DNA of 31,556 bases from a virus. Taxonomy: Duplodnaviria; Heunggongvirae; Uroviricota; Caudoviricetes. The translations under genes and the position numbers were made by a program. The first letter of the stretch is position 1. Every line of letters begins with the position of its first letter. The DNA is taken from positions 1 through 31,556 of IMG/VR virus record IMGVR_UViG_2917849834_000001, one strand, 5' to 3'. The notes under the pieces are model-generated. The model searched no databases and had not been told where the DNA came from. It saw nothing but the letters and a program-made list of their open reading frames with translations. Below, piece by piece: positions 1 to 2,438 of this stretch.

Positions 1-405
1 TTATTTTGGGGACCGGACTTTGCGCGAGGACTTGCCGGGCCGCTTTTTTACGATACTCACCCCGTAATCATTTTTCAGGACATTGATAACTGATTCAAAA
101 AACTCAGCTTTCTGGTTCGCCAGCTCAAGCTGCGTTTCAAGTTCCCTGATTCTTTGCTCGGGTGTGAGCGGGATAGTTGTCTGAGTCACAGGCAGTTTCC
201 TCTTCACCAGGTCAGGAAGTCCAGGACTCCAGTCAAGCCGGCCATATTTACGTAACCAGACAAGAACGGTGGAGCGCCCCTGAATGCCATACCGCTGCTG
301 GGCCTGTTTATAGGTCATCTCGCCTTTTTCAACCTGCTCAACAACAGCTATTTTAAAAGATAGAGGATAATCACGTTGGGTGCGTTTGAGCTCAGTCATC
401 ATCAC
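1..405 (-). mobile_element. IS-family transposase OrfA-like protein (HTH domain), 134 aa; only this ORF is in the window, remainder of the element would lie beyond position 1
   Basis: Complete ORF with RBS-like GGAGAA upstream of the ATG at 405; translation (LKRTQRDYPLSFKIAVVEQVEKGEMTYKQAQQRYGIQGRSTVLVWLRKYG, then coiled-coil-like ELETQLELANQKAEFFE) has the HTH plus leucine-zipper organisation typical of IS3-type OrfA proteins. Family assignment is from memory, not a search. Confidence 0.5.
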
Positions 406-461
406 GTTCTCCAGATTTAAGTCAGGAACGTGTCAACGCTATTCAGGACGGGTCAGGACCA

Positions 462-485
462 ATAAAAAAGCCCGCATCAGCGGGC
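462..485 (-). terminator. Rho-independent terminator (minus-strand sense), probably the native terminator downstream of ssrA
   Basis: Minus strand reads GCCCGC-TGAT-GCGGGC followed by TTTTTTAT; 6-bp GC stem, 4-nt loop and T-run, about 125 nt downstream (minus sense) of the tmRNA 3'-end copy. Confidence 0.6.
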
Positions 486-609
486 TTTAATGTCACAGGG
501 AGTCGCGACTCCGTTGCGTATCCTTTTTTGTCTCCTCACCGTCTGGTCGGTGTCCTGATGAGACTTCTAACTTCCTGTTTTTGTTGTGATAACACCATCC
601 AATCATGAT

Positions 610-654
610 TGGTGGAGCTGGCGGGAGTTGAACCCGCGTCCGAAATTCCTACAT
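610..654 (-). other. Prophage attachment-site core: 45-nt copy of the 3' end of tmRNA gene ssrA (minus-strand sense ATGTAGGAATTTCGGACGCGGGTTCAACTCCCGCCAGCTCCACCA), not a complete ssrA gene
   Basis: Reverse complement of 610-654 matches the 3' terminus of enterobacterial ssrA as I recall it, including the acceptor-arm and CCA end; sequence 5' of it (655 onward) diverges from ssrA and runs into the integrase gene, so this is the phage-host junction carrying the core, with the intact ssrA expected at the other prophage end outside the window. Confidence 0.7.
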
Positions 655-771
655 ACCATTTTTACACTAACGAAATCATATTTTATCATTTTAAATCATG
701 ATGTTAGTGTTAATCTGTATTTGCTTGTTTTACTTGTTTTTAGTGTTCCGCCGCCAAAATGCCGCCATTTA

Positions 772-1797
772 TTAGCGATGCCAGTTGAGGTTATGAAGTG
801 GGTTTTTGGTAACGGCATCTTCCAGATGATCCGGTGCAAAATGGGCATAAATCATGGTCATTTTAATATCAGCGTGTCCTAAAATATCCCTCAATACCAA
901 AATGTTTCCGCCGTTCATCATAAAGTGGCTGGCGAAAGTGTGGCGCAGAACGTGGGTACATTGACCTTCAGGTAGTTCAATTCCAGCTCGTTTTACCGCA
1001 CGCTCAAAAGCCTTTCGGCATGGTGTGAATAACTTTCCTCTATTTTTGGGTAATTCTTCATACAGTTCCTGAGAAATAGGAACTGTTCGGTTTTTCTTTC
1101 CTTTTGTTTTGGTATAGGTAATTCGATACTTTGATATCTGGTTACCTTGCAGGTTTTCGGCTTCGCTCCATCTTGCCCCGGTTGCCAGGCAAATCTTGGC
1201 AATCATTAGCAGACTGGGACTTTGAGATTCAGCACATGCGTCAAGCAGGCGTTTGATTTCATCAGCAGCAAGGAACGCCAGTTCACCCTCTGCAATTTTG
1301 AACGTTGGCAGACCGGCGAGGGGGTTGGGTGCAGACCAATGTCCCAGCTTTTTCAATGTGCCAAAAACTGAGGATAGGTTACGTTGTTCAAGGTTCACCG
1401 TTCTGGGCTTAACTGGTGACATGAGCACGCCATCTTCGTTTTTGACCTCACCTTTTAATCTGGCTTCCCGGTACTTTGTGAAATCACCTGCTGTCAATTC
1501 AGAAGCGATGGGATCACCAAGCCCATTACAAATGATTTTTAACTTAGCCATTAATCGCTTAGGGTCAGCGAGTGTCTGACCGTACAGGGAATACCATTGC
1601 TCAATCACTTCTGACAGTTGTCGTCGATCTTCCTTTTCTCCCAGCCAAGGTTTCTTGTTTACCTCGTCCATGGTGAAATTCTCAAACGCAATGGCTTCGC
1701 CTTTCGTCGCAAATTGTTTGCGTACGCGTTTGCCATCTCGCCCGTTTGGGTAGCATTCACATAACCACTTTCCGTTCGGCTGTTTTCTGATCGTCAT
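772..1797 (-). CDS. int: Tyrosine integrase, P2/186 family
   Basis: 341-aa ORF; N-terminus (GKWLCECYPNGRDGKRVRKQFATKGEAIAFE) and C-terminal catalytic region (LATGARWSEAENL...HVLRHTFASHFMMNGG...LGHADIKMTMIYAHF) align with P2 Int from memory; adjacent to att core and transcribed toward it as in P2/186. Confidence 0.92.
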   Translation of the reverse strand: MTIRKQPNGKWLCECYPNGRDGKRVRKQFATKGEAIAFENFTMDEVNKKPWLGEKEDRRQLSEVIEQWYSLYGQTLADPKRLMAKLKIICNGLGDPIASELTAGDFTKYREARLKGEVKNEDGVLMSPVKPRTVNLEQRNLSSVFGTLKKLGHWSAPNPLAGLPTFKIAEGELAFLAADEIKRLLDACAESQSPSLLMIAKICLATGARWSEAENLQGNQISKYRITYTKTKGKKNRTVPISQELYEELPKNRGKLFTPCRKAFERAVKRAGIELPEGQCTHVLRHTFASHFMMNGGNILVLRDILGHADIKMTMIYAHFAPDHLEDAVTKNPLHNLNWHR

Positions 1798-1799
1798 GA

Positions 1800-2438
1800 T
1801 TAGATACTCTTAATCACTTTTACCACACGCCCTACAACGTCTACGTCATCAACTGCACATTCAAAGGTTGTTTCTTCCTGATGAACAACAAGTTTATTTC
1901 CGGGAATTCGAGCTACTTTTACGATGCTTTTCACTCCATCAATATCAACAAGCCAGGAGCCATTACTGATCTGTTTTACAGATACATCAACAATAAAACT
2001 TTCTGTTGTCGTTTGTATGAATAGATAGTTTGACGAGTCGCCCTCAACCAATCTGCTATCTAATAAAATTTCGTCATATGATTGAAGTTCACCATTTCTT
2101 AACTCTGTGTATTTGATACTGGGAGCTACGATTTTAGAAAGTGGTCTAATTGTGACGTCATTATCATTTTTGAGAATGTTTGCGTCACCGTTATCTGCAT
2201 ACATATCACCCTGTCCGGTTGCCAACCAAAGAAGCGAGATCCCGGTTTCTAGAGCACATTGAATTACCCATTCTGCTGGGAAACTATCTCTTAAGTATCT
2301 GTTTGCCATGGTGCTTTTTGATACTTTTAAGTGTTCGCAGAGCTGTTGGCGTGAGCTGAAATTGTAGGCTTTTATCAGCCTGTTGATGGCATCACGACCC
2401 CCACTATCATTTCCACCCTTGATTAGACTCATAATCAA
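1800..2438 (-). CDS. cI: 186-type CI immunity repressor
   Basis: 212-aa ORF directly upstream of int on the same strand; shares recognisable blocks with coliphage 186 CI (CALETGxxLxWLxTGxG; SWLVDIDGVKSIVKVARIPGNKL; FECAVDDVDVVGRVVKV). Confidence 0.85.
   Translation of the reverse strand: MIMSLIKGGNDSGGRDAINRLIKAYNFSSRQQLCEHLKVSKSTMANRYLRDSFPAEWVIQCALETGISLLWLATGQGDMYADNGDANILKNDNDVTIRPLSKIVAPSIKYTELRNGELQSYDEILLDSRLVEGDSSNYLFIQTTTESFIVDVSVKQISNGSWLVDIDGVKSIVKVARIPGNKLVVHQEETTFECAVDDVDVVGRVVKVIKSI

Follow-up and report, generated by a model that had tools for sequence, protein, structure and literature searches.

The attR junction of a P2-like prophage at Escherichia coli ssrA: a displaced phage-like flank and an insertion sequence beside its terminator

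Which elements meet between the integrase gene and the transposase gene at one end of the viral DNA IMGVR_UViG_2917849834_000001 (IMG/VR; Caudoviricetes), and how did they come to lie side by side? The window, i.e. the whole stretch of DNA that was analyzed, comprises 31,556 nucleotides of this record, and the region in question spans its positions 406-771. An earlier reading of the letters alone (the sequence-only reading) had placed a prophage here at the 3′ end of ssrA, the gene of transfer-messenger RNA (tmRNA), and had remarked on a host-type terminator, on a neighbouring transposase open reading frame (ORF) and on a short palindrome left without explanation. We conclude with good confidence that 406-771 is the attR of a Fels-2/186-type P2-like prophage in the ssrA gene of Escherichia coli, which is a known arrangement. 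This degree of confidence applies to the whole explanation developed below, namely the junction, the displaced flank, the insertion sequence (IS) and the reading of the palindrome, taken together.

The junction itself is directly observed. On the minus strand, positions 610-654 match the 3′ terminus of E. coli ssrA, ATGTAGGAATTTCGGACGCGGGTTCAACTCCCGCCAGCTCCACCA, at 45 out of 45 nucleotides; this 45-mer occurs once in the window and was not matched in any of 100 shuffled sequences. The copy of the ssrA end adjoins the integrase stop as had been proposed, and the exactness of the alignment over 45 nt dispels the concern that the core-like sequence might fail to match ssrA. When the attR of the window is aligned with the attR and attL of the E. 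coli LS4 prophage and with an unoccupied attB, all four share a 46-bp block of identity, ATGTAGG...CCACCAA, which in the window occupies 609-654 (minus strand) and which we take as the attachment (att) core; its positions 610-654 are the last 45 nt of ssrA. In the minus sense, the integrase stop at 772 is followed by an AT-rich arm (771-655), the ssrA end (654-610), approximately 150 nt of non-coding DNA (608-456) and the end of an IS at 455. Rfam recognizes the ssrA copy as a partial tmRNA only (610-754; 33.7 bits against a gathering score of 47), and ARAGORN finds no tmRNA and no tRNA in the whole window; the copy is thus a fragment and not a gene.

The prophage-side arm of attR (655-771, minus strand) carries two 186-type arm repeats, GCCGCCA, at 750-756 and 761-767 with an 11-bp period, and inverted copies of the repeat, GTGGCGGCAAAATGGCG, are present at the attL of LS4. 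The pair agrees with the published consensus of the 186-type arm repeat, tgccGCCActt, and both Fels-2 and SopE-phi integrate into ssrA (PMC3448106). Next to the arm lie a tyrosine integrase (772-1797, minus strand; 341 aa; Pfam Int_N, E 2e-28, and Phage_integrase, E 8e-26) and an ORF for a 186-type CI repressor (1800-2438, minus strand), whose same-position homologue is annotated as ‘phage repressor protein CI’. The integrase homologues in E. coli LS4 and T28R are annotated as ‘site-specific integrase’, and both strains have the same integrase, CI, CII and Fil genes beside the same core and flank. Matches in phage databases are likewise P2-like, with 80-81% coverage and 93.5-94.5% identity to P2-like prophage records, Felsduovirus included.

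The other end of the prophage can be placed through its relatives. In LS4, the tail genes are followed by gene D, ogr, one ORF and then intact ssrA, smpB and ratA, and 13P477T (CP019275) has an identical layout. The last 3.5 kb of the window are 95.4% identical to both, and the window terminates exactly at the stop of gene D, from which intact ssrA is a further 920 bp away in LS4 and 13P477T. With an exact core, integrase and CI genes adjacent to it and same-site prophages in these two strains, the placement of the prophage at ssrA holds. What tells against so firm a call is that the far prophage end with intact ssrA lies beyond the window and that the call leans on close relatives; a search inside the window for a second core copy or an intact tmRNA found neither. 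Furthermore, when the junction pieces were placed by megablast against 5,426 complete E. coli genomes, none of these genomes combined this attR with the IS at this spot. It should be noted that CP019275.1 is labelled as the E. coli plasmid p13P477T-2 (37.4 kb); it holds such a prophage together with ssrA, smpB, ratA, bamE and recN, has frameshifts in many genes, and probably represents a piece of chromosome that was excised or misassembled. The insertion of P2-like prophages in ssrA is textbook knowledge, and the junction in itself is of little weight, given that near-identical E. coli copies are already annotated.

The DNA beyond the core, at 456-608 (minus strand), is the displaced native 3′ flank, or trailer, of ssrA. 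Its identity is directly observed at unoccupied sites: its homologue directly follows ssrA in E. coli FDAARGOS_536, AR96.3A and KY177 (in KY177, apart from an IS), which provides the comparison with an empty ssrA locus that had been suggested. In K-12 and EDL933, the flank borders the resident island distally, and 10 bp separate it from the stop of the convergent gene ypjA. Altogether, 4,184 of the 5,426 E. coli genomes have the flank. An Rfam search of 456-608 with E values up to 1 returned only the partial tmRNA match and a chance match to permuted tmRNA.

Near its end, the flank carries a predicted intrinsic terminator (464-488, minus strand), with a GC-rich stem at 470-475/480-485 extended by three A-T pairs, a loop at 476-479 and a T-tract at 464-469; a pattern scan reports it at 488-467. 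The stem covaries between E. coli alleles, GCCCGC/GCGGGC in one and GCCCAC/GTGGGC in another. The description of this terminator as host-type was apt, in that it belongs to the flank that follows unoccupied ssrA in the three strains named above. In the present arrangement, the terminator is predicted to end most likely integrase transcripts rather than those of ssrA.

Flank alleles within E. coli diverge by about 16%, far above the usual within-species level, and this fits import from, or exchange with, phages. Most of the matching complete E. coli genomes are less than 95% identical to the flank of the window (the best listed is at 91.9%), and only 7 records fall at 95-99%. Between 575 and 600, the window flank has a 6-nt deletion and substitutions relative to other E. 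coli alleles (GGATGGTGTTATCAC vs. GGACGGTGTAAGGACTACAC), and with these changes the second member of an upstream pair of GGAC-type 11-bp repeats is lost.

The flank was compared with phage genomes by BLAST. The lambdoid phage LLS matches at 83% over 152 nt, and Citrobacter phage phiNP and phage Ayreon match at 86% over 84-109 nt (109 nt for Ayreon). Both phiNP and LLS are published ssrA integrators (PMC6456863; PMC12315714). The order in LLS is xis, int, one ORF, an annotated ‘tmRNA pseudogene’/attP, and then a module like the flank that closes in a terminator. In phiNP, the module begins right after a 25-bp ssrA-type core, and in LLS, phiNP and the window alike its start directly follows CCA. 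The homology of the flank to phage attP arms is thus observed directly. The suggestion that several elements lie in series at ssrA is borne out in spirit by this homology, since the flank between the core and the IS resembles the attP arm of a second ssrA-phage family; for the transposase, to which the suggestion had been applied, it does not hold (see below).

A survey of 80 species anchored on smpB showed that ssrA is mostly followed by one of a few element-borne trailers, of the CP4-57 type (AAATTCTCCATCGG...), the Fels-2 type (AATAAATCAAGGGGTTACG...) or the phiNP/LLS type, each with a terminator of its own. On this basis, the view of the flank as ancestral Enterobacterales DNA was rejected. 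Yersinia, Proteus, Providencia, Xenorhabdus, Arsenophonus and Enterobacter soli likewise have the phiNP/LLS-type trailer after ssrA, and tail-fibre-like ORFs come after it in Providencia, Yersinia and E. soli. A truly native ssrA trailer may rarely survive across the Enterobacterales.

From these comparisons we infer that the host flank is likely a relic of, or an exchange product with, a phage of the phiNP/LLS type. No lambdoid genes are found beside the flank, either here or at unoccupied E. coli sites, where its borders are the IS, the DNA upstream of glaH, or ypjA; because no lambdoid genes are attached to it, we regard the flank as a homologue or relic and not as a functional phiNP/LLS-type att site. 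Several observations argue for caution over this origin. The host flank has neither adjacent phage genes nor a second core copy downstream, and its descent from a phage is unproven. The direction of transfer may also have been the opposite, with the phages having captured a host flank. Finally, Ayreon has the module and the palindrome beside a P4-type integrase, with no ssrA-like core. In the Ayreon record (locus L093, 3491-3610), part of the module is annotated as a promoter. On a weaker reading, host chromosomes and phiNP/LLS-type phages may share the 150-bp ssrA trailer as a module of recombination that is mobile.

On the other side of the flank, the transposase ORF had been taken as a sign of another mobile element or a tandem island using ssrA. 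It instead belongs to a 1,312-bp IS of the IS3 family, which seems to target terminators and not ssrA. Its OrfA occupies 1-405 (minus strand; 134 aa; NF033516, E 2.8e-11; Pfam HTH_28) and contains a slippery heptamer, A-AAA-AAG, for -1 frameshifting at 43-49, with OrfB beyond the window start. RefSeq annotates homologues and full copies as ‘IS3 family transposase, programmed frameshift’. The left terminal inverted repeat (IRL) lies at 430-455 (minus strand; TGACCCGTCCTGAATAGCGTTGACAC in the minus sense), with the tip at 455, and the right one (IRR) is TGACTAGTCCTGATATACGTTGACAC (loci L001 and L004). The boundaries are directly observed, in that the tip was set by alignment with a copy of the IS at aspC/gloC and with IS-free sites. 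Both ends are of the 5′-TG...CA-3′ type (IRL TGACCCGTCC..., IRR TGACTAGTCC...). In E. coli KY177, the 3-bp target sequence GGA (456-458 in the window) flanks the IS on either side as a duplication, the other copy lying outside the window here; target duplications are GGA and AGG, and 3-bp duplications flank 11 of 19 full metagenomic copies. KY177 carries this IS at the identical position, and what lies beyond it there is ordinary DNA from upstream of glaH. The family and the inverted repeats of the element, for which the sequence-only reading had advised a database search, are now defined; RefSeq and PLSDB give it no name beyond ‘IS3 family transposase’.

The position of the IS just past a terminator recurs elsewhere. 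A scan of metagenomes for the exact 26-nt IS end yielded 76 distinct flanks, for which 86 stretches located 300 nt away served as controls. In 46-55 of the 76 flanks, an A is found at positions +9 to +13 counted from the IS tip, and a GC-rich hairpin comes next; 40 of the 76 flanks are terminator-like, vs. 1 of the 86 controls. This target bias is a direct observation, and the window fits the spacing exactly (8 nt, AAAAAA, GCCCGC), with the IS co-oriented with the terminator. The same 8-bp spacing is found at about 70% of the 76 independent insertion sites, high-GC hosts included, and the terminator and the IS are therefore probably causally linked. At its other end the IS is often directly next to a stop codon and so parts a gene from its terminator.

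At the insertion point itself, E. coli sites without the IS carry a 17-nt sequence, CTATTCAGGGCGGGTCA, that is identical to the IS tip at 16 of 17 positions; LS4, FDAARGOS_536 and KY177 all have it at this spot. It lies at the positions equivalent to 455/456 in loci L002 (4002-4018) and L001 (3127-3143) and is present in L009 as well. Judged by this resemblance, it appears to be a scar left when a previous copy was largely deleted, with a later re-insertion at the same 3-bp target. Insertion targeted by an inverted repeat, beside a look-alike of the element's own end as in IS911, was considered and rejected: the copy at aspC has no look-alike, and the 8-bp spacing is general. A broader proposal is that this IS selects intrinsic terminators in very different hosts and inserts in the orientation of the terminated transcript, 8 bp of DNA separating its tip from the T-tract, such that its adjacency here is no accident and it re-inserted at the position of an older copy. 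We advance this proposal tentatively, as a possibility somewhat short of an even chance. If true, it would mean a structure- or process-directed choice of target that is new, as far as the literature searched goes, for a specific IS3-family member; no description of a fixed terminator spacing of this IS was found in that literature. Terminator-like sequences are enriched just upstream of ISs in general according to a 2026 survey (PMC13548323), and a sharply phased preference of one IS is a concrete, testable example of what may stand behind this genome-wide enrichment.

The perfect 14-bp palindrome GGAGTCGCGACTCC at 499-512, between the terminator and the core, is present exactly as the sequence-only reading had it, and occurs once in the window. 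The window has three perfect 14-bp palindromes (starting at 499, 599 and 18471), vs. a mean of 1.9 in mononucleotide shuffles, so that the one at 499-512 is unremarkable alone and its reality rests on its conservation in other genomes. These numbers agree with the view that the palindrome arose by chance or is neutral, in a flank that is decaying, and has no function in this genome, as do the 6-nt deletion, which already destroys one upstream GGAC repeat, and the lack of the first 7-mer of the array described below in E. albertii; moreover, nothing need act on the flank here if it is a relic. We consider this view rather unlikely, though it is the least so of the alternatives weighed here. The 25-mer GGATACG(C/T)AA(A/C)GGAG(C/T)CGCG(G/A)CTCC, with four variable positions, is kept across trailers that otherwise differ strongly, and it is kept in free phage genomes too, which argues that it is functional somewhere, even if not in this host copy.

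A second perfect palindrome, CCAATCATGATTGG, which had escaped the earlier reading, lies at 599-612 and spans the CCA end of ssrA and the start of the flank. Analogous palindromes based on CCACCA occur in the trailers of Proteus (CCACCAAATTTGGTGG) and Xenorhabdus (CCAAATTTGG). Palindromes of this kind may be core-type inverted sites or a hairpin of the 3′ end.

The palindrome at 499-512 is part of a larger, phased array. Five 7-mers with an exact 11-bp period run along the minus strand from 555 to 505 (GGACACC at 555-549, AGACGGT at 544-538, AGACAAA at 533-527, GATACGC at 522-516 and GAGTCGC at 511-505), and the palindrome consists of the last 7-mer and an inverted half. The same array architecture is seen in the trailers of other genera and in viral contigs. 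In the other genera, the last two 7-mers change together: Yersinia has GATACGC twice, Proteus has GACACGT and GACACGC, and both Xenorhabdus and E. soli have GCACGTG twice; a covarying pair is reported across the trailers of Yersinia, Proteus, Providencia, Xenorhabdus, Arsenophonus and Enterobacter soli. The sequence GGATACG(C/T)AA(A/G)GGAGCCGCGGCTCC is present in LLS, phiNP and Ayreon, and in LLS and phiNP it lies about 95-120 nt from the ssrA-like core. In phiNP, LLS and several viral contigs, the int-proximal arm has a similar pair of 7-mers at -77/-66 relative to the core, separated by an A-rich spacer of 4 nt, and the LLS Int has a Pfam Arm-DNA-bind_2 domain. On the basis of this patterning, the 7-mers are probably arm-type sites for an integrase of the phiNP/LLS family, and the palindrome would be their last unit, GAGTCGC, plus an inverted half.

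Among 83 unique trailers that were gathered without requiring the palindrome, its left half, GGAGCCGCGG, is nearly invariant, whereas the right half varies (CTCC in 55, CTCT in 12, AGCT in 7 and others in 9), and one lineage of seven trailers (GGAGCCGCGGAGCT) drops the inverted arm wholly and keeps the left half. Taken with the phased array, a nearly invariant left half, a variable right half and the loss of the inverted arm fit phased protein-binding sites better than a hairpin. On the opposite side of the balance are two symmetry-preserving double changes (GGAGTCGCGACTCC, the T/A allele of the window, and AGAGC...GCTCT) and the fact that most one-sided changes lead to G-U in the ssrA sense, which together would also fit an RNA hairpin. 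Such an element would have five base pairs and a CGCG loop. It would form in the pre-tmRNA trailer of strains in which ssrA is still followed by the flank, or here in integrase read-through transcripts, and it might act in processing or stability before the terminator; a flank bounded by the terminator would be co-transcribed with ssrA. The hairpin is retained by RNAalifold, with C-G replaced by U-A as one compensatory pair; G-C to A-U in the outer pair is a further compensatory change; and the single changes are mostly G-U, in 12 CTCT-type variants and one TTCC variant. We nevertheless find a role as RNA unlikely. The minus-strand fold of the whole trailer is ordinary (z = -1.3), the final position of the palindrome takes all four bases, the seven-member lineage keeps the left half only, and the more distant genera conserve the direct repeat and not the hairpin. 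In addition, templated (quasipalindrome) mutation can produce paired symmetric changes in palindromic DNA with no selection involved, which would weaken the case for a hairpin. We infer that protein would bind the 7-mers; as an account of the palindrome, arm-type binding sites are plausible, and unproven.

The opposite strand was also considered. RNA of the plus strand from 456-560 folds unusually well (z = -4.3), as AGGGA-GU-CGCGAC-UCC-GUUGCG-UA-UCCUU followed by UUUU, and a pattern scan gives CGCGACTCCGTTGCG and then TATCCTTTTT on this strand. The palindrome could then be part of an intrinsic terminator for convergent transcription, such as that of ypjA, whose end lies only 10 bp from the flank in both K-12 and EDL933, arranged in tandem or bidirectionally with the main hairpin. 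This is quite improbable and a weak reading, as the inner stem (CGCGGC/TTTGCG) is weaker precisely in the K-12 allele, where ypjA exists, phages and strains lacking a convergent gene at this place conserve the module too, and the T-run is what the conserved A-rich spacer between 7-mers reads as on the complementary strand. Readings as a small ORF are also weak. A minus-strand ORF that starts just after CCA is interrupted in other alleles, and a plus-strand ORF of 22 aa, MSQGVATPLRILFCLLTVWSVS, is open in the K-12 allele but has no ribosome-binding site, its ATG being absent from AR96.3A and from the phage trailers; both were rejected.

Taken together, the order of elements can be accounted for by the following course of events, reconstructed from present-day sequences. 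A P2-like prophage would have entered ssrA through a tyrosine-recombinase exchange located in the final 45 nt of the gene. The replacement 3′ end of ssrA supplied by the phage would now be at attL, beyond the window, and the original 3′ end (609-654) would have been moved to the far side of the prophage, along with the flank (456-608) and its terminator (464-488). The palindrome would have come with this displaced flank, which is homologous to the int-distal attP arm of LLS and phiNP. The IS3-family element would then have inserted 8 bp downstream of the T-tract of the terminator, co-oriented with it, as at most of its sites.

As a whole, the finding is ordinary, and its wider interest is confined to the terminator-homing IS and the phage-like ssrA trailer. 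For the latter, the homology of ‘host’ DNA after ssrA to a phage attP arm implies that repeated integrations can replace the 3′ flank and terminator of the gene, and such flanks should not be taken as ancestral.

Compared with known systems, the prophage is closest to Fels-2 and SopE-phi. It shares with them the left-end order int, CI, CII and Fil, gene D at the window end, the 186-type arm repeats, a long core that rebuilds the ssrA 3′ end, and an integrase at the end far from intact ssrA. Nothing essential sets it apart; this copy is approximately 95-96% identical to the prophages of LS4, T28R and 13P477T. CP4-57 and other ssrA islands use the same host gene, and in K-12 the same 150-bp flank lies distal to CP4-57, by ypjA. 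CP4-57 differs in its P4-type integrase, in a much shorter segment shared at attR (the K-12 alignment keeps CCACCA only) and in its trailer, which begins with the CP4-57-type sequence given above. The IS resembles IS1397 and ISKpn1, IS3-family elements that insert into repetitive extragenic palindromic (REP) hairpins, in its OrfA/OrfB frameshift design, TG...CA ends, 3-bp duplications and hairpin-associated target; unlike them, it inserts at a constant distance of 8 bp from the T-tract of an intrinsic terminator and not into a REP loop. Finally, the flank has 83-86% identity to the attP regions of phiNP (Citrobacter rodentium) and LLS (E. coli), with the 7-mer array, the palindrome and the closing terminator in common. 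In contrast to those phages, the module of the window comes without a lambdoid phage, on the host side of the attR of another phage, and it has the T/A allele of the palindrome and the 6-nt deletion near its start.

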